DNA from: a virus
Reading direction: 5' to 3' (one strand)
Length of the DNA: 61,666 nt
Virus record (IMG/VR): IMGVR_UViG_3300025133_000106
Shown here: positions 1-33,902 of the stretch, piece by piece
Position numbering within the stretch: position 1 is the first letter of the stretch
Layout of the letters: each line of letters opens with the position of its first letter
Position numbers and translations under genes: made by a program
Notes under the pieces: generated by a model
Database searches by the model: none
Told to the model about the DNA's origin: nothing
The model's input: the letters and a program-made list of their open reading frames with translations, nothing else

Positions 1-57
1 AAAACAAAGAATCCATTACTTGCATGGCCACACCGAGATAAACCACAAACAGTAAAA

Positions 58-624
58 TTGCTAGCAGACAGTGTGCTTGTATTCGATAGGTATTATATCA
101 GGAAAAATGCAGAAGAATTTGATTCAATCACATTCAGGCTCGTCTCTTACCCCGGTGAGCCTGTTGCTGATGTTAGATTCTGGGTATCTCTTTGTGACGT
201 TGATGGCCTCGAGGCTGTGAAGGTCACAGCAGTCCCAAAAAAAGGAGCAAAGACCCCTGCTGACAGAGCAGCATCAAAAATTGAGTGTGACATTCTGCGA
301 GCAGGCTTGATGCACTCCCATAAAGATAAATTCATCGACTGCGTAAATGAAATTAGGGTAGCTGATGAATGTATGCTTCAAAGAGCTGTGGGTGTCGTAC
401 CTCCTCGTTTTGAACTTGGTGCATTCTATGGGCCAAAATATAGGGATGGTCCTGATTTTGTAAGAAAAATAAAAATTGAGCTTAGTTTTGAAATAGAGGG
501 AAGTGAATGGTATCGCACTCGAAATAGACTCCAATGGCAATATCGTACGTACAAAGCTAAAGTTTATTTCGACGAAAAAACGTCAATTAAGTGTATGAAG
601 CTATCAGCTCGTCTTCCACAGTAA
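58..624 (+). CDS. hypothetical protein
   Basis: 188-aa ORF at window edge, same strand as neighbours; no recognisable motif. Confidence 0.4.
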   Translation: MLADSVLVFDRYYIRKNAEEFDSITFRLVSYPGEPVADVRFWVSLCDVDGLEAVKVTAVPKKGAKTPADRAASKIECDILRAGLMHSHKDKFIDCVNEIRVADECMLQRAVGVVPPRFELGAFYGPKYRDGPDFVRKIKIELSFEIEGSEWYRTRNRLQWQYRTYKAKVYFDEKTSIKCMKLSARLPQ

Positions 625-682
625 GAATAAATTTTATATAACTTATTGTAAACTGCATTCACATATGTGGTATAATATAAAT

Positions 683-1693
683 ATGAAAATTATGGTTTCT
701 GGAGGCGCAGGCTTCCTTGGTTCATGGCTAATTGAGGAACTATTGTCTTTAGGACATAGTGTAGTTAGTGTAGATAGTATGATAGGCGGGTATGATGATA
801 ATATCATACAAAATAGCAAGCATGAGTTTCATACGGGCGATGTAAGAGATTTAGAGCTAATGACGGAGCTGACTGCTGGATGTGATGTTATTTTCCACAC
901 AGCAGCGTTAGCATATGAAGGGCTGTCAGTTTTTAGTCCAGCATTAATTACTGACAACATCGTTACCGGGACTGTTACATTAGCGACAGCTGGGATAAAC
1001 TCAGGGGTAAAAAGGTTCATTAATTGCTCTTCGATGGCAAGATACGGTGCGAATAAAGTTCCATTTACTGAATCAATGCAGCCATCTCCTGAAGACCCTT
1101 ATGGCGTTGCGAAATATGCAGCTGAGATGCAGCTTGATCTGCTGGGTAGAATTCATGGCTTTGAAGTTGTCCATGCCATTCCCCATAATATTATTGGTCC
1201 ACGCCAAAAGTATGATGATCCCTTCAGAAATGTGGCATCCATAATGACTAATTTAATGCTTCAAGGGCGTCAGCCAATCGTTTACGGCGATGGAAACCAA
1301 AAAAGATGCTTTAGTTTTGTTAACGATGATTTGTTCGTTTTAACAAGGCTGATTGATTGTGATTTAAAAGTTCATGGTGAGAAGTTTAATATCGGCCCAG
1401 ACGAAGAGTTTGTTACTATTAATGAATTAGCCGATAGGATCGCCTCCATACTAGATTTTAAGCTTGATATCGAGTATCATAAAGCACGACCCTGTGAAGT
1501 TATGCTAGCAACATGCTCAGCAAACAAAATTAGAGAAAGGTTCGGATATGAAACAAAGACAACATTAAATGAGGGTTTAGAATCAATTGTTAACTATGTT
1601 AAGCAACGAGGCACACAAAAATTTAAATATCACTTGCCTATTGAGATTCATAATGCACAATTGCCACGAACGTGGAAAGAAAGGCTTTTCTGA
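683..1693 (+). CDS. NAD-dependent epimerase/dehydratase (extended SDR, nucleotide-sugar enzyme)
   Basis: N-terminal Rossmann GGAGFLGSWL; catalytic YxxxK as PYGVAKYAAE; length ~337 aa typical of GalE/RmlB family. Start placed at MKIMVSGG. Confidence 0.75.
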   Translation: MKIMVSGGAGFLGSWLIEELLSLGHSVVSVDSMIGGYDDNIIQNSKHEFHTGDVRDLELMTELTAGCDVIFHTAALAYEGLSVFSPALITDNIVTGTVTLATAGINSGVKRFINCSSMARYGANKVPFTESMQPSPEDPYGVAKYAAEMQLDLLGRIHGFEVVHAIPHNIIGPRQKYDDPFRNVASIMTNLMLQGRQPIVYGDGNQKRCFSFVNDDLFVLTRLIDCDLKVHGEKFNIGPDEEFVTINELADRIASILDFKLDIEYHKARPCEVMLATCSANKIRERFGYETKTTLNEGLESIVNYVKQRGTQKFKYHLPIEIHNAQLPRTWKERLF

Positions 1694-2070
1694 TGAACGC
1701 TTTAGATGATGCAGTTACTGCAATATCACATGAGCTCCTAAAATTAAGTAAACAGAGAAATGACGTAGACTATGAAGCGCTGCCTTTGGACAAACTTGAA
1801 GCCAGGATACATGATGTTCTCATGGGTTTATCAGGAGAAACGCTGAATATACTAAAACAGTCCACAATGAAATCAGGGCTTAAGCAATCACAGGATGAGG
1901 CTGAATGTTGTTCAACTTGTTTAATGCCTATTGCTGAGTGCCATCGCGAAGATGTCGCCGCACGATGGCACAAAGAAGATATGGATCTTTTTTGTAGTTG
2001 TTGTGGGCGCTTTTGGAAAGGCACGATTACTGAGCTGAGTCGTGCCAGAGAGTTTATGGATAATGAATAA
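1693..2070 (+). CDS. Cys-rich (zinc-ribbon-like) hypothetical protein
   Basis: CCSTC...C-H and CSCCGRFW cysteine clusters; ATGA overlap with upstream stop. Confidence 0.45.
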   Translation: MNALDDAVTAISHELLKLSKQRNDVDYEALPLDKLEARIHDVLMGLSGETLNILKQSTMKSGLKQSQDEAECCSTCLMPIAECHREDVAARWHKEDMDLFCSCCGRFWKGTITELSRAREFMDNE

Positions 2071-2578
2071 AATACTGTTAAGTGCAACACTTGGCGCCGC
2101 CCTTCTTTTAAGCCCGTTATATGCAGCATGTGAAAATTGTCATGTAATAGTCAATAAAGTAAGACTTAGCCAGCGACAGATTTCGTCATTAGAAAAACAG
2201 CTTAGTATGAAGCTCGCTTGTGGCGAAGTCTGGTATGATAGCATGACTGGTGCATGGGGCCACTCAGGAGGTCCAACGATAGGGTTCATTAGGCCTGGGC
2301 TTTCGTCTGCGCGCCTGCATAGAAATGCCTCCTCAGGAAATACTGGCGTAATAGTTAACAATAGAGAACTACACTGGCTTGATGTTGCGATACTTACTAG
2401 CCAGGGAATTCCAGTGCGAAAAGGTAGATATTGGCTTAATTATTTTGGCCAAGGGGGAAGGGTCGGCAGAGGTGTAGAGTTTACACTCCCGAAACCCAGG
2501 CAGATTAGGCGGAAGCCACCATCGTCACGCAAATCTGTATTTAGCTCGTATGATCTAACTGGGGTAAAAGTATTTTGA
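2063..2578 (+). CDS. secreted hypothetical protein (signal peptide)
   Basis: N-terminus MNKILLSATLGAALLLSPLYAA is a classic signal peptide. Confidence 0.5.
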   Translation: MNKILLSATLGAALLLSPLYAACENCHVIVNKVRLSQRQISSLEKQLSMKLACGEVWYDSMTGAWGHSGGPTIGFIRPGLSSARLHRNASSGNTGVIVNNRELHWLDVAILTSQGIPVRKGRYWLNYFGQGGRVGRGVEFTLPKPRQIRRKPPSSRKSVFSSYDLTGVKVF

Positions 2579-2979
2579 GTCAAATGAAAGTCGCCGTCGG
2601 CACGGCAATTGCAATTGTTAATAGCTCTGGACAAGTATTAATGCATAAGCGTAAAGGTTCACATGGGTCAAGTGAATGGGCCTTACCCGGCGGCTCAGTT
2701 GATCCTGACGAGTTTGCTTGTGCTGCAGCAATTCGTGAAGTATACGAAGAGACTGGGCTTATTGTTACAGATCTAAAGCGTGTAGGGATAAATTTACATT
2801 TTTTTGAAGAGATTCAAAAAGAGTATGTTACTATATACTACAGGTGTTATAATCGGGAAGGAATTCCAAGAGTCATGGAACCAGAAAAAGTCGATGGTGA
2901 ATGGGAGTGGATTACACCAGGTAATTGGCCATCACCCATTTTTGAGGACACAATTAGCATGATAGAAGGTAAACTATGA
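2575..2979 (+). CDS. Nudix hydrolase (MutT-like)
   Basis: Nudix box GGSVDPDEFACAAAIREVYEETGL (Gx5Ex7REUxEExGU). Confidence 0.7.
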   Translation: MSQMKVAVGTAIAIVNSSGQVLMHKRKGSHGSSEWALPGGSVDPDEFACAAAIREVYEETGLIVTDLKRVGINLHFFEEIQKEYVTIYYRCYNREGIPRVMEPEKVDGEWEWITPGNWPSPIFEDTISMIEGKL

Positions 2980-4085
2980 AAGTCGGATTTTCTTACCATG
3001 GCGTTTGGGATGCAATGCGTCCTGGTCACCAATTAGACACTCCTGATGGGCACCGATATGGTCGTAAGCTGTTCATGCAAGAAGTTGTTGATCAAGGTAA
3101 CATGTTATATTTGCTGCAACCAAGAAGAGAAGAAACGCACTTCGCTGGTGCTATTTATCCATTAGAAGGTTTCCCGAATGTGCACGTCCAGAAAAATGGA
3201 AATGAAGTTGCCATTAAGAAAGAATACTATCCTGACCTTGATGTCATCTTTATGGAGTGGAGATGGTCCACATACAAAAATGACAAAACTCACCCGAAGT
3301 ATGATCCCCTCAAGTATGAGGCCGATCTTGATAGACAGTGTGCCCTGCTAGCATACTATCATGATAAAATCCCCATTATCGTTTGGGATACAGACTTGAA
3401 GCTGACGGCAAAAGACGAAGAAAAGTGGCCAAATCTTATCATCGCTGACCCGTCATTTGAGACGAATCGTTTAACGCGGGATAGGGTCTCGCTACCATTC
3501 TGGACAGACTGGAAAGAAATGTTGCCTACTGCAGATCCATATCCGATATATGGATATATTGGAAATAATTACGAAAGAGACGATGAGTTTGAAAATTATT
3601 TCTTTAACTTAAAACAAAGTACACGGATAGCTGGCATTCAGACTGCGATGTATGGCAACTGGCTACAGTCATCACCCGAGCGCCCTCGGCCAACAGCATT
3701 AATATCAACACATCGAGAAGTTGCGTTTAATCATAGGATGAACTTCTTTGATTCTATGAAAATGTTAAATAAATTTATTTGTACTACACACATCTCGAAG
3801 CCCAGATATTATGAGGTGGGTTTTATGTCACCGAGATATTTAGAAGCACTTGCAGTAAACTGTCCCGCGATGGTTCCGCATACTTTTAAAGAAAGTAATT
3901 TACTTGGCGCACTGTGGACTGTGGAAAAAACATCTGACGTCATGGATAGAATCAGACTTCTTCGTAACATGTCACTTGCTAATAGGCAGGAAATTGTCGA
4001 AGAGCAACGGTATCACCTGCAAAGACAGCATGATTTTCATGTCGACTCTGTCGTTGAGTTTATAACTGAAGGTCATTCATTATGA
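2976..4085 (+). CDS. hypothetical protein embedded between the two epimerase genes
   Basis: 369-aa ORF with 4-nt overlaps on both sides; no motif recognised. Confidence 0.55.
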   Translation: MKVGFSYHGVWDAMRPGHQLDTPDGHRYGRKLFMQEVVDQGNMLYLLQPRREETHFAGAIYPLEGFPNVHVQKNGNEVAIKKEYYPDLDVIFMEWRWSTYKNDKTHPKYDPLKYEADLDRQCALLAYYHDKIPIIVWDTDLKLTAKDEEKWPNLIIADPSFETNRLTRDRVSLPFWTDWKEMLPTADPYPIYGYIGNNYERDDEFENYFFNLKQSTRIAGIQTAMYGNWLQSSPERPRPTALISTHREVAFNHRMNFFDSMKMLNKFICTTHISKPRYYEVGFMSPRYLEALAVNCPAMVPHTFKESNLLGALWTVEKTSDVMDRIRLLRNMSLANRQEIVEEQRYHLQRQHDFHVDSVVEFITEGHSL

Positions 4086-5074
4086 AAATAATCGTAACTG
4101 GGCATGCTGGGTTTATAGGATCACATTTATGTAGAGCCCTACTAGAGGCCGGGCACGAAGTTATTGGCATCGATAATTTTAACGATACTCTGGGTGGCAG
4201 AACTGCAGAACAAACACTGAACGAGAAACATATTCACCTTGGGCTTTCTGGGGTTGAGCGAGATAGAATGTCTCTTTATACAGCAGACATCAGAAACGAC
4301 GACATCAAAGAACTCTTCAGTGATGTAGATGTTGTTTATCATCTTGCTGCACAAGCAAGCTTGAGTAAGTCATTTGATTATCCGCTAGAATATCAAAGCG
4401 TGAATGTGGAAGGAACCAACAACATCCTTGAATTTTGTCGCGAAGCGTCGGTTAAGAGAGTTATTTTTGCTTCTGATGCGTCAGTACTGGGATCTGATAC
4501 AACATTTCCATCATTAAGACCACGCCCAGAAAGCGTATTCGCTATGACGAAGATGTCAGGTGAACTTTTAGGTCGTACTTACAACACAAATTTCGGAATA
4601 GAGTTTATTTCACTAAGACTCTTTAATGTGTATGGTCCCAGGTCGAGATGTGATATGGTCATGTCAAAGTTCATTGAGTCAGCTATCGAGCAAATACCTG
4701 TTAAGGGATTATGTTACGGTGGCTCTGTTCGTGATTATATCTACATCACTGACTGTGTCGATGCGCTAAGTGCAGCACTTGACATCAAACTACCAGTTTC
4801 TGGGTATGAATATATCGACGTCGGCACTGGAAAAAGCACAAAGTTATTTAATTTACGGTGTTGTATCGAAAAAAATGTGGGTAAAAATATCCTTCTTGAT
4901 GCAGGCGATCCAGATTATGGCTATCCGAAGGGCGTAATGTCATATAGCGTAGCAAATCCATTAAAGGCGGAGGAATTATTGGAGTGGAGACCTAAAGTCA
5001 CTTTAGACGTGGGTATAGCACGACAGGTCGCTTATATGAAATTAGCACAAATACTAAAGCTAAGTAACACATAG
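4082..5074 (+). CDS. NAD-dependent epimerase/dehydratase family protein (catalytic Tyr replaced by Phe)
   Basis: Rossmann GHAGFIGSHL; SDR-like layout, but the YxxxK position reads FAMTK. Confidence 0.65.
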   Translation: MKIIVTGHAGFIGSHLCRALLEAGHEVIGIDNFNDTLGGRTAEQTLNEKHIHLGLSGVERDRMSLYTADIRNDDIKELFSDVDVVYHLAAQASLSKSFDYPLEYQSVNVEGTNNILEFCREASVKRVIFASDASVLGSDTTFPSLRPRPESVFAMTKMSGELLGRTYNTNFGIEFISLRLFNVYGPRSRCDMVMSKFIESAIEQIPVKGLCYGGSVRDYIYITDCVDALSAALDIKLPVSGYEYIDVGTGKSTKLFNLRCCIEKNVGKNILLDAGDPDYGYPKGVMSYSVANPLKAEELLEWRPKVTLDVGIARQVAYMKLAQILKLSNT

Positions 5075-5106
5075 ATAACTTATTACATTATAGTGTATAA
5101 TTCTTT

Positions 5107-5637
5107 ATGCAGCGTATAATAATATTCGAAGGCCCAGATAGATGCGGTAAATCAAACATCGCACAAGAACTATCAAAAAGGCTGGATATTCCCTATTTTA
5201 AGAATAAGAGAGAGTCAAAGTTTTTTAAAGCTGATCCTGGTTATTTTGTGAAAGCATTAAAGTATGCTGATCCATATTTTATAAGCTACTTGCAGCAAAC
5301 AAAGGCATCAATAATCTTAGATCGCTCATTCCCATCTGAGTGGGTCTATAGCCAAGCATTTAATAGGGAAACAAACCTAGATATTCTACGCATGGTTGAT
5401 GGGCTCTATGCTGGAATCGGCGCAAAGATTATTATTCCCACTAGGAAAGACTACGCATTATGCAGTCCCGATCAATTCGAAGAAATTGATAAAGAAATGC
5501 TTGTCAAGCTTGATGGTTTATATACGGATTTTGAGTCCTGGACGTCATGTGAAACTAAAAGAATTAACGTCGACGATGAAGATCTAGAAAGAGAATTGAG
5601 CGAAATTATGCCATTTTTAGAAGGCAGCGAAGATTAA
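5107..5637 (+). CDS. deoxynucleoside monophosphate kinase (P-loop, thymidylate-kinase-like)
   Basis: Walker A IIFEGPDRCGKSN; size ~176 aa as in phage dNMP kinases. Confidence 0.6.
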   Translation: MQRIIIFEGPDRCGKSNIAQELSKRLDIPYFKNKRESKFFKADPGYFVKALKYADPYFISYLQQTKASIILDRSFPSEWVYSQAFNRETNLDILRMVDGLYAGIGAKIIIPTRKDYALCSPDQFEEIDKEMLVKLDGLYTDFESWTSCETKRINVDDEDLERELSEIMPFLEGSED

Positions 5638-6500
5638 TGAATAAAATAAAAGAAGAGAATTATCACAGCAAACCATTTAGAAAGATTTTCAAAGATCTTC
5701 ACAAGAACGGAAAATATTGTTCACCACGAGGCCAGAAGGTATTAGAAATAGAGAACTATTCTTATACACTTCCCCCATGGGTTAGGTTTCAAAACTTCGA
5801 GCACAGAAAGCTCAGCCTTAAGTATATTAAGACGGAACTGCAATGGTATTTAAAGGGCGATAAACGAGATTTAAGCATCATCGATAGTGCAAAAATTTGG
5901 GGTGACATCGTTAATGATGATGGTACAATTAATTCGAATTATGGGCAATACATTTTCGGGAAAACAAACCAGTTTGATAATGTTTTAAATTTACTTAAGA
6001 GTGATAGGGATTCAAGACGTGCAAGCATCGTCTTGTTAAATAAAAAGCATCTCTTTTCTGAAACTAAGGACGTTCCTTGTACATACTCAATGAACTTCAG
6101 GATTAGAGAAAACAAGCTGAATATGTCTGTTCATATGCGGAGTCAAGATGCTATTTTCGGAATGGGCAATGACGCTCCAACATTCAGCATAATCCATGAA
6201 ATGATGTTATGTGCACTGCATGAGTATTATCCAAGTTTAGAGTATGGTGATTATTTTCATATAGCAGATTCATTTCACGTCTACGAGCGTCATTTTGATA
6301 TGCTGCAAAAACTTACTGGAAAGAGGCTTATCGAAAGAGATACTAAGGAAAGGCCTTTGCATAGACACAAAAAATCTGTCTATGTGGTAGAAAATTGTCC
6401 AAAGATATCAGGTCCAAATGAGGTCAGGTTTTTAAGGAAACTTGATTTTTCTGTCATACCTGAGCCTTTTAAATTTACTAAATGGTTGGTAGAAAAATGA
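5637..6500 (+). CDS. thymidylate synthase-family pyrimidine hydroxymethylase (dCMP hydroxymethylase-like)
   Basis: ThyA-fold hallmarks: catalytic Cys in DVPCTYSMNF, HMRSQD..., C-terminal DSFHVYERH. Asp rather than Asn at the position aligned to TS Asn177 (GMGNDAPTF vs GLPFNIASY). Confidence 0.65.
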   Translation: MNKIKEENYHSKPFRKIFKDLHKNGKYCSPRGQKVLEIENYSYTLPPWVRFQNFEHRKLSLKYIKTELQWYLKGDKRDLSIIDSAKIWGDIVNDDGTINSNYGQYIFGKTNQFDNVLNLLKSDRDSRRASIVLLNKKHLFSETKDVPCTYSMNFRIRENKLNMSVHMRSQDAIFGMGNDAPTFSIIHEMMLCALHEYYPSLEYGDYFHIADSFHVYERHFDMLQKLTGKRLIERDTKERPLHRHKKSVYVVENCPKISGPNEVRFLRKLDFSVIPEPFKFTKWLVEK

Positions 6501-7330
6501 AGACAAGAGAGATTCAATTATTGTTGAATAAGCATGGCCACCGGCTACGCTTAGACGACCAAATGGGGCCTACGACAAAGTCAGCAGTTCGAGCCTTTCA
6601 AAGAAAGCACAAGCTTGTTGCTGATGGTATTGTTGGTTCATTAACTATTAGAGCATTACGTAAATCTCCGGCCAGTTCGAAGAAGCTAAAGTTCAAAAAA
6701 ATTGTATGCGACGATTTTGTTCTTGGCGGAATAGTATCTGGAGCAAATCAAACCTGGATAAGGGAAGATGCAGTTTCTTCATTAGCAAAAGTAAGAGACA
6801 CGATCCAGAGCGCAGGCGCGCTATTTACATCTCATGGCGGAAGGAGACTTCTAAGTGCATCAGTAGGCAAAAATAGAAGTAAAACGAGCCTTCATTATCT
6901 TGGTCTTGCTCATGATCTTCATACAAAATCAGGTATGGTTGATCCTTACAATGATCCTTATGTTGTTGTCCAGAGTCTCGAGGATCACCGGAGGTGGACT
7001 GTATACGCTAGGGTTGATTACCCTATAGGCACATATTTAGAGCTGGAGGCGTACACCTATGAACACAAAAAAATCTCCGTTGCAGGAAATTATATTAACA
7101 TCACTGAGCTTATGGCAGAAAATGGCTGGAAGAGTATCCGCGCAAGAAAGTCATTTTTCTCGAAAGGAAATACGCTGGCAGCAGAGTGGTGGCATTTCCA
7201 AAATGAAGATGTCTTAAAAAAGGGTGTAACTTTCGGCTCAGAATTGATAAAATCATATAAATTGAAAAAATTAAAATCATATCCGTTATGGAAACGTAAT
7301 GGTGTCAAGTGGCAAAAGAATTGGTTTTAG
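6497..7330 (+). CDS. endolysin: PG-binding domain + peptidase M15 (VanY-like)
   Basis: PG_binding_1-like QMGPTTKSAVRAFQRKHKLVADGIVGSLT; M15 motifs SLHYLGLAHDLH and AEWWHFQ; ATGA overlap with upstream gene. Confidence 0.7.
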   Translation: MKTREIQLLLNKHGHRLRLDDQMGPTTKSAVRAFQRKHKLVADGIVGSLTIRALRKSPASSKKLKFKKIVCDDFVLGGIVSGANQTWIREDAVSSLAKVRDTIQSAGALFTSHGGRRLLSASVGKNRSKTSLHYLGLAHDLHTKSGMVDPYNDPYVVVQSLEDHRRWTVYARVDYPIGTYLELEAYTYEHKKISVAGNYINITELMAENGWKSIRARKSFFSKGNTLAAEWWHFQNEDVLKKGVTFGSELIKSYKLKKLKSYPLWKRNGVKWQKNWF

Positions 7331-7891
7331 ATGAAGACAAAAGAGCTTATAAAGCAACTTCAAGAAGCAGACCCATCAGGTGAGCTAGATTGTAACTGTA
7401 ATGGGGCAGATATATACTTCGTTCAACATGAGTACGGCTATTATGACGGCCCATATGAGCGTTTAAAAAGAGATGACTCCAAAGCATGTTACAACGTTAC
7501 TGGAGCTGAAATCACTACCGCCGGAGAAAAAGTTATAATTCATACGTTGTCTATTGAAGATGCATTGTGTAATGATACTGAGCTACCTGTTACTGTCACA
7601 CATTATAATAGAGATAGAATGGCTGAGTATCTTGACACAGTCGAAAAGTGGCGGCAAGAGGCTCGCGATAGTTATCGCAGAGTGAATATGATGTGCTTTG
7701 CGCAATTCGTTAAAAAAGAGTTTGGTCTTGAGCGTGAGATTGCAGATGCATTCTATGCAAGGAATATACACTATAAGGACGAGATTGATGCCGATATTAA
7801 AGCTACTAAATCAAGCCCTTGGCAAAAAAATCATGAAATGTGGAAGCGTAACATTACAGCAGTCAATGGCTTGTTAAAGAAGGTAGGCTAA
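7331..7891 (+). CDS. hypothetical protein
   Basis: 186-aa ORF, tight spacing. Confidence 0.5.
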   Translation: MKTKELIKQLQEADPSGELDCNCNGADIYFVQHEYGYYDGPYERLKRDDSKACYNVTGAEITTAGEKVIIHTLSIEDALCNDTELPVTVTHYNRDRMAEYLDTVEKWRQEARDSYRRVNMMCFAQFVKKEFGLEREIADAFYARNIHYKDEIDADIKATKSSPWQKNHEMWKRNITAVNGLLKKVG

Positions 7892-7892
7892 T

Positions 7893-8831
7893 ATGGACCC
7901 TAAATCTGTCAACTGCGTTATTTATCATGGAAATTGTTCTGATGGTTTTGGCGCAGCATGGGCAGCATGGAAAGTCCTTGGCAATAAGGCTGAATATCAT
8001 GCAGCCTTTCATGGAAAAGCGCCACCTGACGTGACTGGTAAGCGTGTCGTCGTTCTTGATTTTGCATATGACAAAAAAATAACAAAACATTTAATTGCGA
8101 CTGCCGAAGATTTCGAAATGAGAGATCACCACAAGTCAGCAATGATGATGCTAGATGGAATAGCTAAACCAGACTGGTTTCAGTTGGGCAACAGCGGAGC
8201 AATTTTAGCATGGGAATATTTTCATCGAGGGATACCTGCGCCAAGGTTTCTGCAGTTCATAGAAAACAGAGATATGGGCTGGAAACCCTATATGGAATAC
8301 TCAAAAGAATTCTCGACAGCCTTTGATATGATCCCGCTAGAATTTCCAGCGTATGACAGAATGATGAATGCATCTGTTGTAGATGATTGTATTAGAAAGG
8401 GTTCACACATTTTACCTTACGCAGATGCTGCTATTGATAAAGTATGCTCAAAGGCAGTTAAGCGTAAGCTGCAAGAGCATTGTGTTCTTGTTGTTAACTC
8501 GACTCAGTGGATATCTGAGGTCGGCATGAGATTAGCGCCTGATTGCGATTATGCAATAGTGTGGTATTGGGATCATAATGAGAAATATGCGAAAGTTAGC
8601 TTACGATCTTTCCACGATCATATTGACTGCGGTTCGATCGCTAAGCGATTCGGAGGCGGAGGGCATGCGGAGATCGCAGGCTTTGAATACTCAGGAAACA
8701 TCGAAGACTTGTTTAAAAAGCAAATTAAAACCCTCCGAATTGAAACTAAGGATTCAGGAGCACAGCAACTTACCGGCTCGTCCGAGTTGGGATATGATCT
8801 GGATGTCGACAGCTCGTCTTTTGGCAAGTAG
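7893..8831 (+). CDS. DHH-family phosphoesterase (NrnA/RecJ-like core)
   Basis: Motifs HGNCSDGFG (I), VVVLDF (II), RDHH (III), GGGGHAE (IV). Confidence 0.7.
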   Translation: MDPKSVNCVIYHGNCSDGFGAAWAAWKVLGNKAEYHAAFHGKAPPDVTGKRVVVLDFAYDKKITKHLIATAEDFEMRDHHKSAMMMLDGIAKPDWFQLGNSGAILAWEYFHRGIPAPRFLQFIENRDMGWKPYMEYSKEFSTAFDMIPLEFPAYDRMMNASVVDDCIRKGSHILPYADAAIDKVCSKAVKRKLQEHCVLVVNSTQWISEVGMRLAPDCDYAIVWYWDHNEKYAKVSLRSFHDHIDCGSIAKRFGGGGHAEIAGFEYSGNIEDLFKKQIKTLRIETKDSGAQQLTGSSELGYDLDVDSSSFGK

Positions 8832-9189
8832 ATCAATTGATCCAAGAACAAAGGTTGGGTGTGTTATCGTTACTGGCGATAATTCACAAGTCTTAGCAGT
8901 TGGATACAATGGTGATCAGAAGGGCGGAACAAACATGGTCGAATCTGATGAACCTGGCAAGAGCGGCACAATACACGCTGAGGAGAATGCACTAATCAAA
9001 TGCGATTTTTCTAGTCATAAAGAGAAGATTATGTATCTTACAGTCAGTCCATGTGATCAATGTGCAAAGAAAATTATAAATGCAGAGATTGATGAAGTTG
9101 TTTATGATGTCGAATACAGAATTACGGATGGTATTGATAGACTAGAGGCTGCTGGTATCTTTGTAAGAAAGTTTAAAACAAATGAATAG
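8794..9189 (+). CDS. dCMP deaminase (cytidine/deoxycytidylate deaminase fold)
   Basis: Zinc motifs HAEENA and SPCDQCAKKI; start moved to internal ATG 8794 to avoid a long overlap with the DHH gene. Confidence 0.7.
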   Translation: MIWMSTARLLASRSIDPRTKVGCVIVTGDNSQVLAVGYNGDQKGGTNMVESDEPGKSGTIHAEENALIKCDFSSHKEKIMYLTVSPCDQCAKKIINAEIDEVVYDVEYRITDGIDRLEAAGIFVRKFKTNE

Positions 9190-9448
9190 ATACTTTATCA
9201 CGCAAGAAAACTTCTTTAAAAATAAGTTTTCGCAATTGTGCGAAGGCGACATGATTTTGCGTAGAGATCTTATAATAGATTGGCCTAAAAACGTCGCAAC
9301 AGAAGTGTTAATTGTTGCAAAGAGGTTACCTTCGACGGTGGCAGCAGTACAATTATTACCCTTGACCGGGATTTTTTTAATGAATGCTTTACCCTACGTG
9401 AGGACGAGGGAGTCTCGTATCAAGGAGACTTTATTATTGTACAAATGA
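9182..9448 (+). CDS. hypothetical small protein
   Basis: 88-aa ORF only. Confidence 0.3.
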   Translation: MNRYFITQENFFKNKFSQLCEGDMILRRDLIIDWPKNVATEVLIVAKRLPSTVAAVQLLPLTGIFLMNALPYVRTRESRIKETLLLYK

Positions 9449-9481
9449 ATAAAAAAGAGAGGGGATTATATATAATAGATA

Positions 9482-11272
9482 ATGCAATATGATTCTCCCA
9501 TAGCATTCTTTTTAGGTAAAGATGCTGATAAGCAAACACACAAAAGAATTAGAGATAAAGGCTTCAAAATTGTAGAGGGCACTTACGATGTCTTGGTTTA
9601 TCACCCTCTTCACTGGACAGTTAAATCACAAAATTCACTTGAAGAATCAATCAATGATAGAAGGTTTCTACCTCCCCATGGGCTACTTGAAGTGGGTGTT
9701 GATTTTCCCTATAGTCACGCAATAATTCCTGAAAGTGTGGAAGCGAAATTATTGCTTCGTTATTTATTTGGTTTATCTGAGGGCCAAACATACAGTGATT
9801 TGTTTAAAACACAAAATATCACCGAAGCAAAAGGCACAACAAGAAGAAGCTTCTTAAAGTCCATGGCTGCAGCCATGGGCACTGCAGCGACAGCAAATCC
9901 AGCAAAATTGGCAGGTGTAGCTAAGACTGCGATGACGCCTGCGGCAACAACGATAACAAGTCCAGGCGCTAGGGCTCTTTCATTCTTTGTAGCAAATGAA
10001 CTTGGTTATGCTTGGTCGAAAGCTGAGGTGTACAATCGCTGGGCCAAAATGAAAAAGCACATTGGTGTATTGGATCCTAAGATGAGAAAAGCAGAGGTTG
10101 CTAAACTGGAAAATGCTCTAAATGACACTATGAAGAGTTTTCCTGAAGGTGGTATTGAGGGATTACATAGTGATGAAGTGTTGGATGCCTTCGATGCCAA
10201 TATGGAGTTATTCGACAATTTATCAGGCTTTGGCACCCCTGCGTGGACTGATCAGGCGGCAAAAATATCTGATGACGCAAATCGGGAATGGTACAAAGAA
10301 GAATTTCCAGAAGATTTTGAAAAAGAAACTGAGCGTAATGATCAACAAGCTGATAAAGCTACCGACAATCATCACAGCACAGATCCAGGTGACGAAGACA
10401 TCACAGACACACCCTGGAGTGCGACAAGAATGGGCGACAGAAAGCAATGGAAAGGTGAAGATGATTTCATTGATGAAGCCAAGGGCACGACAAGAAGAAG
10501 CTTCTTGAAAAGTATGGCTGCAGCCATGGGCACTGCAGCGACAGCAAATCCAGCAAAATTGGCAGGTGTAGCAAAGGCAGCAATGAAACCAGCTTCGGTT
10601 GCTATAACAAGCCCAGGTGCTAAAGCACTTGCGTCGACAATCGCAGGAGAGCTTATATATGCTGCTTCAAAAGCTGCCTTATATGATCGCTTCAAAAAAT
10701 CAAAAGAAATTGCTTTTAAGCTTGACCCTACGATGAAAAAAGCAGAGATTTCTAAATTAGAGAATATTCTCGCTGATGCTACAAAAGACTTCGCCAACGG
10801 CCCAAATGGCATGAATTACGGTAGCATGAGTGATACAGCAGCAGACGCTCTTGAGTTGAAATCTGCAGCATTCGAAAAATTAGCAGGTCACGGAACCGGT
10901 GGATGGGATGAAGCAACAAGACAAATAAGCAGTGATGTTGACCATACATGGCATCGAGCTGAGTTTCCTGAATTATATAAGGACGTTCCTGAGGAATTAC
11001 GGCCTGTGGAGGATGATGAGTATGATGATAGTTTCCAACCACCAGATGATGACAATTATATATCCAACGTAGACCCAGGTGACGAAGACCTCATTAGCAC
11101 TCCCTGGAGTGCAACAAGAATGGGCGACAGAAAGCAATGGAAAGGTGAAGATGATTTCATTGATGAAGCAAAACAGTTCAGGATTGCGATCCCGTCTGTT
11201 CGTCATTTAAAGAAGGCATGGCCAAATGATAGAAAGGGCTGGACATCAGAGATTGATAAGGTATTAAAATGA
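9482..11272 (+). CDS. repeat protein with two internal Tat-signal-like modules
   Basis: Two ~217-aa tandem modules, each starting GTTRRSFLKSMAAAMGTAATANPAKLAGVAK and ending TPWSATRMGDRKQWKGEDDFIDEAK. Confidence 0.6.
   Translation: MQYDSPIAFFLGKDADKQTHKRIRDKGFKIVEGTYDVLVYHPLHWTVKSQNSLEESINDRRFLPPHGLLEVGVDFPYSHAIIPESVEAKLLLRYLFGLSEGQTYSDLFKTQNITEAKGTTRRSFLKSMAAAMGTAATANPAKLAGVAKTAMTPAATTITSPGARALSFFVANELGYAWSKAEVYNRWAKMKKHIGVLDPKMRKAEVAKLENALNDTMKSFPEGGIEGLHSDEVLDAFDANMELFDNLSGFGTPAWTDQAAKISDDANREWYKEEFPEDFEKETERNDQQADKATDNHHSTDPGDEDITDTPWSATRMGDRKQWKGEDDFIDEAKGTTRRSFLKSMAAAMGTAATANPAKLAGVAKAAMKPASVAITSPGAKALASTIAGELIYAASKAALYDRFKKSKEIAFKLDPTMKKAEISKLENILADATKDFANGPNGMNYGSMSDTAADALELKSAAFEKLAGHGTGGWDEATRQISSDVDHTWHRAEFPELYKDVPEELRPVEDDEYDDSFQPPDDDNYISNVDPGDEDLISTPWSATRMGDRKQWKGEDDFIDEAKQFRIAIPSVRHLKKAWPNDRKGWTSEIDKVLK
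9824..11172 (+). repeat. intragenic tandem duplication (~651-bp unit x2)
   Basis: Near-identical DNA at ~9824 and ~10475 (gaagc(a/c)aa(a/g)ggcac(a/g)acaagaagaagcttctt...ggctgcagccatgggcactgcagcgacagcaaatccagcaaaattggcaggtgtagc). Confidence 0.85.
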
Positions 11273-11850
11273 CATACGGGTTTATATATTCTAAGCTTTT
11301 GCCTGATGGTTCAAAAGAAAGAGCAAAAACACATAACATTTCTTTTTCTTCACTTGACGAAAAATTCGAATTCCTACAAGAATGTTCAGCAAAAGGCATT
11401 TTAACAGGCGTCCCAGCATGCGAGCTATTAGAACATGCCGGAAAGAAAAATATAATGTGGGTTGATATTGACACGCCTAATTATAAAGCTTTTAAATTAT
11501 GGGAGCAATCAGAAGCATTTCCTATTACTGGCGGCAGCTATGCTGCGATAAAGTCAGCCACAGGAAATATACATATGTACGTTTCTACTGATAGAAAACT
11601 ATCTGTTGATGAATGTTTTTCTATGGGCGAGTTAATTAGAGAAAGTGCACCGATGTCAATTCGCCCTTTTATTGATAGAATTTATGGCCCAGATAATTTA
11701 GAGCCTATCTTTATACCGGGGACCGCACAGAAACTAAATATTTTACCTCAATCATTACTAGAGAACATCCACGGAATTTATACTATCCCAAGCACAATAG
11801 AGGGAAGTGAATTTAGAGAATGGCAGAAACGTACGAATTATAAACTTTAA
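11269..11850 (+). CDS. hypothetical protein
   Basis: 193-aa ORF with 4-nt overlap. Confidence 0.5.
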   Translation: MTYGFIYSKLLPDGSKERAKTHNISFSSLDEKFEFLQECSAKGILTGVPACELLEHAGKKNIMWVDIDTPNYKAFKLWEQSEAFPITGGSYAAIKSATGNIHMYVSTDRKLSVDECFSMGELIRESAPMSIRPFIDRIYGPDNLEPIFIPGTAQKLNILPQSLLENIHGIYTIPSTIEGSEFREWQKRTNYKL

Positions 11851-11907
11851 TGACATAGCCATAATTTTGGCTTTACTTTTCTTACTACAATAATTAAGAT
11901 TAGGACT

Positions 11908-12186
11908 ATGACAAAATTAACTGAAGAAGACGCCATCAGAGCTATACGTGAAGGCTGGAATAAGAAGGCAGCTAACCTTGAACGTGGCCTTTTTGAGTTC
12001 CTAAAACATGACCCGTCTGAGCGAAAAGGTTTAATCGGCGTTGACACGAAGGTAAGACATAAGGGTTCGCAACTTCTCTATACTGTCGACTCTATCAAAC
12101 CTGACTCAATTATCCTTAGAACACCAGAGAATAAATTATTCCCAGTAAGTGACAAAGATTTTGAAGAAGACTACGAGCTAGACTAA
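11908..12186 (+). CDS. hypothetical protein
   Basis: 92-aa ORF. Confidence 0.45.
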   Translation: MTKLTEEDAIRAIREGWNKKAANLERGLFEFLKHDPSERKGLIGVDTKVRHKGSQLLYTVDSIKPDSIILRTPENKLFPVSDKDFEEDYELD

Positions 12187-12195
12187 GGATAACAG

Positions 12196-12876
12196 ATGGT
12201 AACAAGAAAAGATATATTAGCAGGCATTAAAAAAGACCTAAAGATTGATAAGCCTTTAAGTGAATCGTATGTCGCGTCAGAAAAGTCATATGATCTAAAT
12301 ACAGAGTTGCTAAGCGCAAAAACTAAGCAGACGCATATTAAGTTATATAAAGAGCGGATACAGGCTTTAAATGAAGTTAGTGCTGAACTTGACACTGCTG
12401 ATAGAGAAGCTGCCAACCATAACATGTCTGAGTTTCGAACGTTAAAAGCACTAGAAATGAGACATAGAAATTCTGTTATGCTGCATGAAATGTATTTCTC
12501 TAACATAAGTGACATTAGAAGTGAAATTTCATACGATTCAATCACATACATGAAGCTGGCAGCTAGTTTCGGCACATTCGATGATTGGCAGTGGGACTTT
12601 ATGGCATGCGCTGCCTCAGCAGACGAAGGTTGGGCAGTAACAGTTTATGATACATTTCTTAGGAGATACATCAATGTTATGATTGATGGTGATAGTAAAC
12701 ATATTCCCGTAGGGTGCTTTCCGATCGTAGTATTAGATGTTTGGGCACATTCATATTACAAAGACTATCTCGACAACAAGAACGGTTATATAGAGAACAT
12801 GATGCGTGAATTAAGGTGGGATGTTATTGAAGAGCGCGTCCAACGCGCTGAAATGATAGCACAGGTAGTTAAATAA
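12196..12876 (+). CDS. Fe/Mn superoxide dismutase-like protein
   Basis: C-terminal DVWAHSYY (SOD signature DVWEHAYY) and LHEMYFSNI resembling NHSLFWKNL; overall two-domain layout. Confidence 0.5.
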   Translation: MVTRKDILAGIKKDLKIDKPLSESYVASEKSYDLNTELLSAKTKQTHIKLYKERIQALNEVSAELDTADREAANHNMSEFRTLKALEMRHRNSVMLHEMYFSNISDIRSEISYDSITYMKLAASFGTFDDWQWDFMACAASADEGWAVTVYDTFLRRYINVMIDGDSKHIPVGCFPIVVLDVWAHSYYKDYLDNKNGYIENMMRELRWDVIEERVQRAEMIAQVVK

Positions 12877-13514
12877 TGAACAAAATCACTATTTTAAGAA
12901 AGCTTATTTTTGAAACTTTATTGAATGAAGAGATTCGGTTGTCAAAAGATTCACTTGATGATCAGGTTGACGCAATTTTGCTTAGATTCGAAACTGATTG
13001 CATCGATCAAGAATCTGGGGGCAGCGAAGAGCTTGGTGATGATGAAACAATGAGTTTTGCAGAATCTATCTTACGTGAAGCTCCTGGTGATAAAGATGAG
13101 GAAGAGGATGATGATGAGTTTGCAAAAGAGGAAGAGCCTGTAGATCCCGAAGAAGCTCCAGCTGACGCAACGGACGAGCCAGAGGAAGAGGAAGAACCAG
13201 ACTTAACAACGGATGACGACTTCTCAGTTGAAGAAGATTCCGATCCACTCCAGCCAGCAATAGATCTTCATAAATTCGCGGGTAAAGTGTCTCGTCTTGC
13301 TACGAATTATCATAGTCTACTAGATATGCCTATAGCTATTGCGAATAGGGCTCGTAATTATTTAGAGCAAAACTACAGTCACACAGTCGCAACTGAGTTT
13401 GAAGAAATCTTGGAAAGAGAGTTTGATATAATTTTAGATCGCGAATCACTTGAAGAACCACGAGAGAAACCAATGGCTGTCGGCGCTGGTGCATCAGGTA
13501 TCGGGGGAGTATAA
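12876..13514 (+). CDS. highly acidic protein (Asp/Glu-rich)
   Basis: Long D/E tracts, e.g. DKDEEEDDDEFAKEEEPVDPEEAPADATDEPEEEEEPD. Confidence 0.55.
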   Translation: MNKITILRKLIFETLLNEEIRLSKDSLDDQVDAILLRFETDCIDQESGGSEELGDDETMSFAESILREAPGDKDEEEDDDEFAKEEEPVDPEEAPADATDEPEEEEEPDLTTDDDFSVEEDSDPLQPAIDLHKFAGKVSRLATNYHSLLDMPIAIANRARNYLEQNYSHTVATEFEEILEREFDIILDRESLEEPREKPMAVGAGASGIGGV

Positions 13515-20083: not shown

Positions 20084-20892
20084 AAATTGGATTAATAGCA
20101 GCGAGTTGTAAACCATTTCACGTAGGGCATTGGAACCTAATAAAGCTAGCATCTAGTGATAACGATTATGTTGAGGTTATTGTTTCGCTTGCTGATAGAT
20201 GCAAGCCAGGTGAATTTCATATTAAGGGAGTAGATATGGAGTTAGTGTGGAATGAATGTATCATGCCCAACCTTCCTCAAAATGTTAAAGTAAGCTTCGT
20301 AAAAGTACCTATTAGACATATTTACGAAACACTCGGGTTCGCTAATGAAGAGAAACTTACAACAAAGTATAGCGTATATTCTGACCCTATAGATATACAA
20401 CGAAGGTTCCCAATGAACAGCCGCGAAAAGTATTTCGGGTGGTTACATAATAATATTGGCGTAGAGTTTGTCTCTGTTGAAAGAACGGGTAAGAATGACA
20501 TATCTGGCACCCGGATGAGGGAATTTTTATCAACTGATAACAAGAAGATGTTTGTGCAGTCATTACCCAATGAGATAGATGGCTCAAGAGTCTGGCAAAT
20601 TCTTGGTGGCACTACACAGCTTAGTGTGAATGTTGTCGGTGCACTTGATTTCGTGTCCGACATGATGCCAAATTCTGAGGATTGGTTGGCGGCAAAGAAA
20701 CAAATTCTGCTTTCTTTGCCGCCCGTTGACAGAAAACAATTTACCACAAGAGACCCTAAAACTAAGAACCATTATCCCTTTAATGATTTCGAAAAAAAGG
20801 TTCGCTCTTATTGGAGAGATAAAACAGGGAAGCTATTAATGATGCCTGCAAATAAGATGATGGAAGATGCGCCTGCAGACGCCTATTTATAG
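20080..20892 (+). CDS. nucleotidyltransferase, HxGH cytidylyltransferase-like (NMNAT-like)
   Basis: N-terminal GLIAASCKPFHVGHW (HxGH motif) and ISGTRMRE (ISxTxxR-like). Confidence 0.55.
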   Translation: MKIGLIAASCKPFHVGHWNLIKLASSDNDYVEVIVSLADRCKPGEFHIKGVDMELVWNECIMPNLPQNVKVSFVKVPIRHIYETLGFANEEKLTTKYSVYSDPIDIQRRFPMNSREKYFGWLHNNIGVEFVSVERTGKNDISGTRMREFLSTDNKKMFVQSLPNEIDGSRVWQILGGTTQLSVNVVGALDFVSDMMPNSEDWLAAKKQILLSLPPVDRKQFTTRDPKTKNHYPFNDFEKKVRSYWRDKTGKLLMMPANKMMEDAPADAYL

Positions 20893-20894
20893 CT

Positions 20895-32234: not shown

Positions 32235-33902
<1,668 letters not shown>

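Follow-up and report, generated by a model that had tools for sequence, protein, structure and literature searches.

The question raised by this locus is whether a block of nucleotide and nucleotide-sugar genes in an uncultured jumbo phage (308.6-kb contig) forms a single pathway for decorating cytosine in DNA and, if so, with which sugar. The window, the whole stretch of that DNA that was analyzed, is 61,666 nucleotides long. A preliminary description had listed eight ORFs; all are present on the + strand as given below, and Pfam and PHROG profile matches bear out its family assignments ORF by ORF. It had also presented them as a contiguous module of ~8.5 kb; the listed genes are there, but other ORFs are interspersed, and thus the stretch is not purely module. 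In order, the features are the following.

683..1693, + strand: SDR-A, intact extended SDR of the NDP-sugar 4-epimerase type (PF01370 5.4e-41, phrog_540 1.8e-56)
about 1693-2070: lineage-specific ORF within the 8.5 kb
about 2063-2578: lineage-specific ORF, signal-peptide-like N-terminus
2575..2979, + strand: MutT-type Nudix hydrolase, candidate dCTP pyrophosphatase (NUDIX 2.3e-18)
2976..4085, + strand: GT-B glycosyltransferase (GT) of an uncharacterized phage-restricted family, predicted hmC-DNA glycosyltransferase (369 aa)
4082..5074, + strand: SDR-B, orphan UDP-glucuronate-4-epimerase-like SDR with a degenerate active site (PF01370 3.5e-50, phrog_540 1.2e-64)
5107..5637, + strand: Tmk/YorR-like P-loop nucleotide kinase, predicted 5hm-dCMP kinase (phrog_761 "thymidylate kinase" 8.1e-12)
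5637..6500, + strand: ThyA-superfamily enzyme, predicted dCMP 5-hydroxymethylase (5hm-dCMP synthase; PF00303 3e-24)
6482-7330: endolysin-like PG_binding_1 protein within the 8.5 kb
7331-7891: ORF without assigned function within the 8.5 kb
7893..8831, + strand: DHH/DHHA1 phosphoesterase (phrog_4771 9.1e-55, DHHA1 1.2e-6)
8794..9189, + strand: dCMP deaminase, predicted supplier of dUMP for dTMP synthesis, cf. T4 cd (PF00383, dCMP_cyt_deam_1, 2.4e-21; phrog_174 6.3e-40)

Alternative starts exist for SDR-A (665, 683, or 692) and for the Nudix gene (2575 or 2584). The 4-nt ATGA overlaps reported on both sides of the GT gene were confirmed at 2976-2979, where the Nudix stop overlaps the GT start, and at 4082-4085, and the kinase and ThyA homologue genes share 1 nt.

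The ThyA-family enzyme is hydroxymethylase-like, as had been proposed. Its top PDB match is the T4 dCMP hydroxymethylase (1B49/1B5E, 3.5e-19), and its residues E58, W80, L143D, C146, D169, G173, N177D, and Y209 match the signature of T4 gp42 at all these positions and differ from those of RB69 gp48 and E. coli ThyA. Judged by its residues, the protein is shown to have an active site of the dCMP 5-hydroxymethylase type. The rules for interpreting positions L143, D169, and N177 were taken from PMC13326640, and by these rules an enzyme carrying N177D and L143D could not methylate dUMP. A role as a thymidylate synthase is ruled out by these two substitutions together with a score of 75 bits against an equivalog cutoff of 327 bits, ~250 bits short and far under all of the thymidylate synthase cutoffs. 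The same observations bear on the reading of the locus as ordinary nucleotide metabolism, in which a divergent thymidylate synthase, Tmk, and dCMP deaminase would make dTTP beside a generic pair of sugar epimerases. Together these three enzymes are the canonical route to dTTP, and PHROG and Pfam indeed label the families "thymidylate synthase" and "thymidylate kinase"; however, in addition to the evidence above, the closest cultured homologue, ORF10 of RsoM2USA (59.6% identity, same signature), is accompanied in that phage by a separate, bona fide Td, and we consider this reading highly improbable.

The preliminary description left the product of 2976..4085 unassigned and proposed it as a candidate transferase. 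Sequence searches gave only a subthreshold match to Glyco_trans_1_2 (E 0.0029), with zero PHROG, NCBIfam, or PDB sequence matches and no tblastn homologues among 50,697 phage records. The suggestion of a transferase is supported by a confident structure model, which is that of a GT-B glycosyltransferase; when 48,164 PDB chains were ranked by structure, T4 beta-GT came 2nd and alpha-GT 5th. The profile of the family also aligns nearly full-length to T4 beta-GT (hhalign E 0.0015), and its invariant Arg and Glu align with UDP-binding residues of that enzyme. As modeled, the 369-aa protein is thus shown to be a GT-B glycosyltransferase closest to the T4 DNA glucosyltransferases. The family is small (369 cluster representatives from 1.84e9 proteins searched), the members found occur solely in phage or metagenome contigs, and a pattern scan returned 0 in 185,579 bacterial and archaeal genomes. 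One member has an HTH fused at its N-terminus.

We consider it likely that the module carries out pre-replicative cytosine hypermodification, in which C is converted to hmC and the GT then attaches a sugar from a donor made by SDR-A. In the proposed scheme, the Nudix hydrolase would convert dCTP to dCMP, both lowering dCTP and supplying the hydroxymethylase; the ThyA homologue would form 5hm-dCMP from dCMP and methylene-tetrahydrofolate; and the Tmk-like kinase would produce 5hm-dCDP, with the triphosphate then made by host NDP kinase. The phage DnaE-type polymerase would incorporate hmC in place of C, while dCMP deaminase would turn some of the dCMP into dUMP, from which thymidylate is made. 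After replication, the GT would move the sugar from an NDP-sugar onto the hydroxymethyl group, SDR-A having converted a host NDP-sugar to the donor preferred by the GT. Such DNA would withstand host restriction and CRISPR nucleases, as that of T-even phages does. If true, a known way of evading restriction takes a new form here, built on a previously uncharacterized transferase family.

In T-even phages, glucosyl-hmC is made by the gp42 dCMP hydroxymethylase, gp1 dNMP kinase, gp56 dCTPase, cd, and the alpha- and beta-glucosyltransferases. The present locus shares this logic and, by signature (L143D/D169/N177D in the ThyA homologue), the base chemistry; a dCMP deaminase is found in both, the GT-B fold is nearest to beta-GT, and the GT lies close to the hydroxymethylase gene, much as b-gt adjoins gene 42 in T4. 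It differs in its GT, which is of a distinct sequence family outside Pfam and PHROG and related at the profile level given above, in encoding an NDP-sugar epimerase together with that GT, and in its phage, a DnaE-type jumbo phage outside Straboviridae. The kinase is a P-loop kinase as previously described, but it is not gp1-like; it is instead Tmk/YorR-like, of the RB69 gp45 type, with SPbeta YorR (3kb2) as its top PDB match. A Nudix gene stands at the place expected for a gp56-type dCTPase, and the 61 kb of the contig that were analyzed revealed neither a gp56-type dCTPase nor a second thymidylate synthase, nor any GT besides this one. The solved structures nearest to the Nudix protein are NTP pyrophosphatases of the MutT, NUDX1, NUDT15, and MTH1 type, not sugar-nucleotide hydrolases, and its NCBIfam matches are all far under cutoff. 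In two distant members of the GT family (L029 and L030), a PF08761 dUTPase_2 gene (gp56 family) lies directly upstream of kinase-GT-ThyA. Because the Nudix gene occupies the position of these gp56-type dCTPases, its product is more likely a dCTPase analogue (T4 gp56 function) than a sugar enzyme.

The analogy previously drawn to arabinosyl-hmC in RB69-like phages is outdated, since RB69 makes arabinosyl-5-hydroxycytosine, with no hmC and no SDRs, by means of an FMN-dependent ThyA homologue and an arabinose-5-P isomerase/kinase/uridylyltransferase route (PMC13326640). Clusters for glycosyl-5-hydroxycytosine are described in RB69, DLP3, and Rhizobium phage RL38J1 (Lee et al., NAR 2026, PMC13326640). 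Like them, the present locus groups a Tmk-like kinase, a GT, and a ThyA homologue and encodes donor-sugar enzymes beside the GT; its kinase is 34% identical (E 4e-9) to gp45 of the characterized RB69 Ara-5hoC cluster (PMC13326640), and the UDP-galactopyranose mutase of RL38J1 is also found in one relative (L016). This shared architecture and the homology to gp45 would fit a flavin-dependent 5-hydroxy-dCMP synthase, with the sugar placed directly on the C5-O. However, the ThyA homologue retains D169 and lacks the diagnostic D169N, which excludes it as an RB69-type 5-hydroxy-dCMP synthase, and W80, G173, and Y209 are those of folate-dependent enzymes; RB69 gp48 has other residues at all four positions. 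For the present enzyme, hmC rather than 5hoC is therefore predicted. Furthermore, the GT has no detectable relationship to RB69 gp47:46, and genes for arabinose-5-P isomerase and uridylyltransferase are absent, the donor route here being an SDR epimerase. We give 5-hydroxycytosine chemistry very little credence.

Kinase, GT, SDR, ThyA homologue, and dCMP deaminase genes recur as a set, rearrangements notwithstanding, in about 20 related loci; the first four are found in all of these loci, in differing orders, and the deaminase is syntenic in all that are of sufficient length. Every GT-family locus with DNA has a Tmk-like kinase and a same-signature ThyA homologue adjoining the GT, and these contexts include two unrelated phage backbones. 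In marine relatives, as in L029 and L030, the gene immediately upstream of the GT encodes an orthologue of the kinase, and the order in distant relatives from unrelated phages is dUTPase_2, kinase, GT, ThyA (same signature), and DNA polymerase. A third context has ThyA, methyltransferase, and GT genes plus a carbamoyltransferase. The clustering exceeds chance, because the set recurs in about 20 loci and the kinase-GT-ThyA triad in unrelated phages, although a single phage lineage accounts for most of the related loci, and synteny by descent therefore explains some of the co-occurrence. This conserved linkage, reaching into unrelated backbones, upholds the view of the genes as one DNA-modification module. 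Alternatively, the ThyA homologue and kinase might stop at bare hmC in the DNA, or function only in nucleotide metabolism, and the targets of the GT and SDRs would lie elsewhere, for example in virion proteins or glycans of the host envelope. The presence of a ThyA-family gene near the GT in every context examined, including contexts in unrelated replication modules, between dCTPase and DNA polymerase, argues against this, as do the ranking of both T4 DNA GTs within the top five structural matches, the empty scan of bacterial genomes, and the HTH fusion; we regard it as improbable.

Of the two extended SDRs named in the preliminary description as epimerases/dehydratases, both belong to the family, but only SDR-A is both catalytically intact and conserved alongside the GT. 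SDR-A retains GxxGxxG, Ser, and YxxxK, its sequence lacks the TDE/TSE dehydratase or decarboxylase motif, and its top PDB matches are UDP-hexose/HexNAc 4-epimerases (4zrm, 6wjb). Its orthologues are ~70% identical in L005, L006, L026, and L027 and ~34% identical in marine relatives, where they adjoin the GT. SDR-B most closely matches B. cereus UGAepi, the highest-scoring entry being the Y149F mutant (6zlj), and its motifs ASDAS and FAMTK correspond to Thr126 to Asp and Tyr149 to Phe, whereas the S/T and Y are retained in 120/120 of its nearest homologues. It has no relatives above about 40% identity among 5.8e9 proteins and is missing from all related loci. Because the catalytic Thr and Tyr are lost, SDR-B is probably not a working epimerase.

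SDR-A is predicted to supply the sugar donor, and it is by association that it is linked to the GT. The constant presence of an intact epimerase-type SDR with the GT in this lineage makes a sugar other than glucose plausible, and with SDR-A being of the 4-epimerase type, the sugar attached is probably not glucose but a 4-epimer (galactose, GalNAc, or GalA, for example). Glucosyl-hmC made from host UDP-glucose as in T4, with SDR-A and SDR-B as unrelated auxiliary genes syntenic by chance, appears unlikely, if less so than the alternatives above. L029 and L030 have no SDR nearby, and therefore the GT family can work with a host donor; SDR-B is degenerate, and the SDR type adjoining the GT differs between sublineages. 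However, an intact epimerase-type SDR occurs with the GT at every jumbo/marine-lineage locus, often directly adjoining it, and further donor-making enzymes lie beside the same core in L016 (UDP-galactopyranose mutase and a UXS-like SDR) and L027 (dehydratase, aminotransferase, and acetyltransferase). Epimerase-dependent DNA GTs are also documented: those of metavirome Subclass II need a co-encoded sugar epimerase (Pyle et al., bioRxiv 10.1101/2023.12.21.572611/Cell Rep 2024) and were shown experimentally to put Hex, HexNAc, or HexA on 5hmC (bioRxiv 10.1101/2023.12.21.572611). Their 5hmC arises post-replicatively via a C5-methyltransferase and a TET-like dioxygenase, whereas here it is predicted to arise pre-replicatively via the ThyA homologue and kinase; GT-B enzymes have also been associated computationally with ThyS and dCMP deaminase (Pyle et al., bioRxiv 10.1101/2023.12.21.572611).

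RsoM2USA, a Ralstonia jumbo phage of the XacN1-like group, has the closest cultured relatives of the ThyA homologue and, near it, of the Nudix protein (47% identity), but it lacks a GT homologue, and SDR or kinase matches are absent from the 20-kb neighborhood of its ThyA homologue that was searched. That gene is annotated solely as "putative thymidylate synthase," and DNA modification is unreported for this phage. The DHH phosphoesterase is not core to the module, because its gene is missing from L008-L018, L029, and L030. Orthologues lie between the ThyA and deaminase genes in L002, L005, L006, L019, L026, and L027, and the protein is a syntenic neighbor with, possibly, a role in mononucleotide salvage.

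The window, part of a large phage genome, is a run of + strand genes, among them those for GroEL, RIIA/RIIB, an ATP-dependent DNA ligase, a sigma-70-like factor, and a 5'-3' exonuclease. Because a 308,593-bp metagenome contig (ENA ERZ27249009, k141_306648) carries the exact 369-aa protein encoded at 2976-4085, the source is a jumbo phage; the DNA inspected was 61 kb of this 308-kb genome plus 7 kb upstream. A megablast search of 50,697 phage records found no DNA nearly identical to the 8.7-kb module region. All eight genes that the preliminary description had listed were recovered with the same coordinates and family assignments, as were the 4-nt (ATGA) overlaps on both sides of 2976-4085. The description of 665-9189 as one contiguous module holds for the listed genes but not for the span as a whole, since four further ORFs within it lie outside the module. 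The genes are as follows.

683-1693, + strand, extended SDR protein (SDR-A)
2575-2979, + strand, Nudix hydrolase
2976-4085, + strand, 369-aa putative glycosyltransferase (GT)
4082-5074, + strand, extended SDR protein (SDR-B)
5107-5637, + strand, P-loop kinase
5637-6500, + strand, ThyA homologue
7893-8831, + strand, DHH phosphoesterase
8794-9189, + strand, dCMP deaminase
Within the module span, two lineage-specific small ORFs, not part of the module
6482-7330, endolysin-like PG_binding_1 protein, not part of the module
7331-7891, ORF of no assigned family, not part of the module

The ORF at 2063-2578 (+ strand), between SDR-A and the Nudix gene, is lineage specific, has a signal-peptide-like N-terminus (MNKILLSATLGAALLLSPLYAA), and has no homologue in any related locus. 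Within 1-13000, neither the predicted sigma-70 promoters (44, versus 38.4 +/- 6.6 in shuffled sequence) nor the terminators (14, versus 8.7 +/- 3.1) exceeded expectation, and these scans therefore provide no evidence of an operon. No tandem repeats were found.

The product of 5637-6500 has the ThyA fold (PF00303, 3e-24), with a cysteine aligned to the catalytic C146 (E. coli ThyA numbering). Its closest solved structure is T4 dCMP hydroxymethylase (3.5e-19), with the CMP hydroxymethylase MilA and all thymidylate synthases behind. Alignment with E. coli ThyA, T4 gp42, RB69 gp48, and SPO1 gp29 gives E58, W80, Y94, L143D, C146, R166, D169, G173, N177D, H207, and Y209, all of which are as in T4 gp42. 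N177D falls in FGMGND, opposite FGFRND in T4 (D179); L143D is the aspartate of KDVPC; and D169 is kept in the motif MRSQD. Lee et al. (NAR 2026, PMC13326640) associate N177D with selection of dCMP and an acidic residue at L143 with a non-methyl product, the rule being that this residue admits water and so gives a hydroxymethyl rather than a methyl group; for RB69 and DLP3, whose 5-hydroxy-dCMP synthases are flavin dependent, their mark is D169N.

A canonical thymidylate synthase is rejected on the basis of N177D and L143D and by a best NCBIfam score of 75.5 bits against a cutoff of 327 (the cutoffs of the thymidylate synthase models range from 108 to 427 bits). A 5-hydroxy-dCMP synthase is likewise rejected, as RB69 gp48 has N at position 169 and also differs at W80, G173, and Y209, all four of which are unchanged here. 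A dUMP hydroxymethylase was rejected on the same kind of evidence, since it would keep N177, as SPO1 gp29 does. The T4 gp42-identical residues, the T4 enzyme as best solved relative, and the comparison with ORF10 of Ralstonia phage RsoM2USA thus lead us to predict that 5637-6500 encodes a 5hm-dCMP synthase of the T4 gp42 type, in line with the hydroxymethylase-like enzyme proposed earlier. RsoM2USA ORF10 (7607-8443 of its record) is the closest cultured homologue, with 59.6% identity and the full dCMP hydroxymethylase signature. It is annotated as “hypothetical” or “putative thymidylate synthase,” and a bona fide Td thymidylate synthase is encoded separately in that genome. The DNA of RsoM2USA may contain hmC or a derivative, which is unreported so far.

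The 369-aa protein at 2976-4085 belongs to a well-populated metagenomic family (42 to 60% identity in a search of 5.8 billion proteins), none of whose members has a name. An AlphaFold2 model built from a 53-sequence alignment is confident (pLDDT 91.8, pTM 0.89) and displays the two-Rossmann GT-B fold found in T4 beta-GT. Foldseek comparison with viral models returned only distant GT-B proteins (TM about 0.6), including the GTs of phages SP-15 and RL2RES, and the sole Pfam match, to Glyco_trans_1_2, was below threshold. The family aligns weakly with T4 beta-GT (hhalign E 0.0015, probability 17%, across 276 columns). In this weak alignment, the family-invariant R201, R287, and E290 lie opposite beta-GT R195, R269, and E272, and beta-GT D100 falls between D87 and the invariant D89, one residue off. 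In T4 beta-GT, we take R191, R195, R269, and E272 to be UDP-binding residues and D100 to be the catalytic aspartate. No relationship was demonstrable by hhalign to T4 alpha-GT (E 0.073, 57 columns) or to RB69 gp47:46 (E 0.18, 23 columns), and phmmer found no match among PDB sequences even at an E of 10. The earlier suggestion of a candidate transferase is thus strengthened by the confident GT-B model and by a gene context that includes the predicted hydroxymethylase, and on the model the protein is a DNA-GT-like glycosyltransferase.

The family is small, with 369 cluster representatives at an E of <=1e-3 and 90 at <=1e-30 in an exhaustive profile search of 1.84 billion such representatives. 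A tblastn search of 50,697 phage records with the 369-aa query found no homologue, and hence no cultured phage with this GT. A single-sequence scan of IMG/VR also returned nothing, and the members there were recovered by an alignment-based scan instead. No relatives were found in 185,579 bacterial and archaeal genomes, an absence that is suggestive only, as exact peptide patterns were required. One member of the family has an HTH domain at its N-terminus, and another (P0309) is a fusion of GT and methyltransferase.

About 20 loci with GT-family members were fetched from IMG/VR, JGI, Tara, Logan, and NCBI assemblies, the longest contig being 288 kb. At every locus that was long enough, a Tmk-like kinase, at least one extended SDR, a ThyA homologue, and a dCMP deaminase lie within a few kilobases of the GT, and the ThyA homologues carry the L143D/D169/N177D signature. 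Gene order varies by sublineage: SDR-A ... Nudix-GT-SDR-B-kinase-ThyA in the window, kinase-GT-SDR-ThyA-SDR in Tara-type loci, and kinase-GT-ThyA-SDR in L019. These loci are from related phages that have in common a DnaE-type polymerase and a nearby Fe/Mn superoxide dismutase-like gene; in the window, a protein with the Fe/Mn superoxide dismutase C-terminal domain is encoded at 12196-12876 (+ strand), and it is kept a few kilobases downstream of the module in most related contigs.

Because of this kinship, more independent cases were sought, and three distant family members (117 to 191 bits) were found in different phage backgrounds. One locus (L029), with a family-B polymerase, DnaB, and RecA, has the order dUTPase_2 (PF08761), UDG, Tmk-like kinase, GT, ThyA, and DNA polymerase, and a second (L030) has the order dUTPase_2, kinase, GT, ThyA, and DnaE; the ThyA homologues of both share the hmC signature of 5637-6500. 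The third, on the contig of protein P0305, contains a HAD hydrolase, a carbamoyltransferase, ThyA, a methyltransferase, and the GT, which, together with the P0309 fusion, hints that the sugar or base is tailored further. Given the conserved linkage, the distant contexts with the hmC signature, the HTH and methyltransferase fusions, and the blank bacterial and archaeal scan, DNA is a much more likely acceptor than a glycan of the envelope or virion. Transfer of a sugar by the GT to hmC in duplex DNA is accordingly predicted, with support from gene context.

The preliminary description had named two extended-SDR epimerase/dehydratases, of which only SDR-A has its catalytic residues intact. SDR-A has the features of an extended SDR 4-epimerase (GGAGFLG, CSSMARYG, and YGVAKY, with Ser and YxxxK kept), and TDE/TSE, which would supply the acidic residue of a 4,6-dehydratase or decarboxylase, is absent. 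The solved structures closest to it are those of UDP-hexose and UDP-HexNAc 4-epimerases. The “gatekeeper” positions of GalE gave no sugar specificity for SDR-A, since the alignment there is unreliable and SDR-A has distinct motifs (PHNIIG, FRNVASI, and RCFSFV). Orthologues have about 70% identity in closer relatives and about 34% in the marine group, where they directly adjoin the GT. SDR-B resembles the UDP-glucuronate 4-epimerase of Bacillus cereus, with its top score against the entry for the Y149F mutant, but in its triad the catalytic Thr is replaced by Asp and the Tyr by Phe, with only the Lys kept; a Ser or Thr together with the Tyr is present in 120 of its 120 nearest homologues. The Y149F change by itself reduces the activity of BcUGAepi about 1,200-fold (PMC7984243). 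SDR-B is also an orphan: among 5.8 billion proteins, no homologue exceeds about 40% identity, and no related locus has a counterpart. For these reasons, SDR-B probably does not function as an epimerase. Its ORF is nevertheless intact, with a start that overlaps the stop of the GT gene, and the protein may be a pseudoenzyme. NCBIfam subtyping of SDR-A, SDR-B, the Nudix protein, and the kinase gave only matches far below equivalog cutoffs.

Among the relatives, the genes for making the donor vary around a constant core. In L016 (7388-14860), the order is a UXS-like SDR (STSEIYG), UDP-galactopyranose mutase, kinase, GT, SDR, ThyA, a GMP reductase/IMPDH-family protein, and thymidine kinase, an arrangement suggestive of a furanose on hmC, either Galf or Araf. 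In L027, a Gad2-domain protein lies directly upstream of the GT, and a 4,6-dehydratase (STDEVFG), a DegT aminotransferase, and an acetyltransferase are encoded at 18944-21065, 8 kb downstream of it, suggesting an N-acetylated amino-deoxy sugar. Since the donor-making genes of these two loci differ around the same core, they point to different sugars in different phages.

The kinase at 5107-5637 was described earlier as a P-loop dNMP kinase analogous to T4 gp1; it is a P-loop kinase, but its relatives are YorR and RB69 gp45 rather than gp1. It has 34% identity to RB69 gp45 (BLASTP E 4e-9), and its best PDB match is SPbeta YorR (3kb2), which is also the top match of DLP3 gp78 (PMC13326640). In the characterized RB69 cluster, the gene for gp45, a “nucleotide kinase,” adjoins those for the first arabinosyltransferase and the ThyA homologue (PMC13326640). 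The homology to gp45 and the position beside the GT and ThyA homologue place 5107-5637 with the Tmk/YorR-like kinases of hypermodification clusters, and we infer that it phosphorylates 5hm-dCMP.

The Nudix protein groups with NTP pyrophosphatases of the MutT, NUDX1, NUDT15, and MTH1 type and not with sugar-nucleotide hydrolases. The stop of its gene overlaps the GT start, a Nudix protein with 47% identity is encoded near the ThyA homologue in RsoM2USA, which has neither the GT nor the SDRs, and genes for gp56-family dCTPases (PF08761) lie just upstream of kinase-GT-ThyA in L029 and L030. On these grounds, and by analogy, we propose that the Nudix protein is the dCTP pyrophosphatase of this system. 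It is not a T4 gp56-type dCTPase, a family (PF08761) that is all-alpha, and the analogy is one of function only. The dCMP deaminase fits the T4 pattern, in which dCMP is diverted to dUMP. The DHH phosphoesterase is syntenic in only part of the lineage and is absent from the distant loci; it is treated as a noncore neighbor with a possible role in salvage.

The window follows the logic of the T-even glucosyl-hmC system, with the same base chemistry predicted. The two differ in the families of the GT and the kinase, in the Nudix gene found at the place expected of a gp56-type dCTPase, and in the coencoded sugar epimerase. The earlier analogy with arabinosyl-hmC in RB69-like phages needs updating: the DNA of RB69 and DLP3 contains arabinosylated 5-hydroxycytosine, which arises through a D169N ThyA homologue and an arabinose-5-phosphate route (PMC13326640), and the window does not have D169N. 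There is demonstrated precedent for DNA GTs that need a partner epimerase, in metavirome pathways where 5hmC is made by a methyltransferase and a TET-like dioxygenase, and the computational part of the same study found that GT-B enzymes often neighbor ThyS and dCMP deaminase (Pyle et al., 10.1101/2023.12.21.572611). The system in the window, as read from evidence that is computational throughout, is thus not categorically new but a known strategy in a new arrangement.

Taken as a whole, the following reading is tentative, and we would not expect all of its parts to hold together. An uncharacterized GT-B family, beta-GT-like and restricted to phages, would provide the hmC-DNA glycosyltransferase in a widespread lineage of large phages from marine and aquatic habitats, fed in the jumbo branch by a dedicated phage NDP-sugar 4-epimerase. 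Virion DNA would contain glycosyl-hmC with a chemically undescribed non-glucose sugar, of the Gal, GalNAc, or GalA type here and in furanose or amino-sugar versions in relatives, and SDR-B, catalytically dead, would serve the transferase as an accessory that binds a sugar nucleotide or NAD. If so, glycosylated hmC DNA would extend beyond the T-even phages and the metavirome pathways tested recently, as a conserved feature of one lineage of 170- to 310-kb phages that is frequent in Tara Oceans and other aquatic metagenomes. DNA of this kind is resistant to many restriction enzymes and Cas nucleases, and it can bias library preparation and sequencing. A new family of DNA glycosyltransferases would be useful for enzymology and 5hmC-labeling tools, as would the natural set of donor-sugar variations around one core (4-epimerase alone; epimerase and mutase; decarboxylase; and dehydratase, aminotransferase, and acetyltransferase). 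Of minor evolutionary note are SDR-B, with its degenerate active site, and the proposed use of a Nudix protein in place of a gp56-type dCTPase.

Several other genes in the window, all on the + strand, were also noted. The 596-aa protein encoded at 9482-11272 is internally duplicated over about 225 aa, each copy having a Tat-signal-like TTRRSFLKSMAAAMGTAATANPAKLAG at its start and TPWSATRMGDRKQWKGEDDFIDEAK at its end; it has no Pfam or PHROG match. An 858-aa protein (43835-46411) with a major-vault-protein shoulder (PF11978, 3.8e-19) and Vault_3 repeat domains, unusual in a phage, directly follows a MoxR-type AAA_5 ATPase and a VWA/DUF2201 metallopeptidase-like protein (40944-42248 and 42249-43682). 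The phage GroEL is encoded at 32241-33902 (phrog_5725, 3.6e-153) and is immediately followed by a second Nudix protein of 221 aa (33916-34581; PF00293, 3.4e-12). The product of 35583-37448 is a 621-aa protein with repeated Cu-binding MopE motifs (PF11617, 4e-39).
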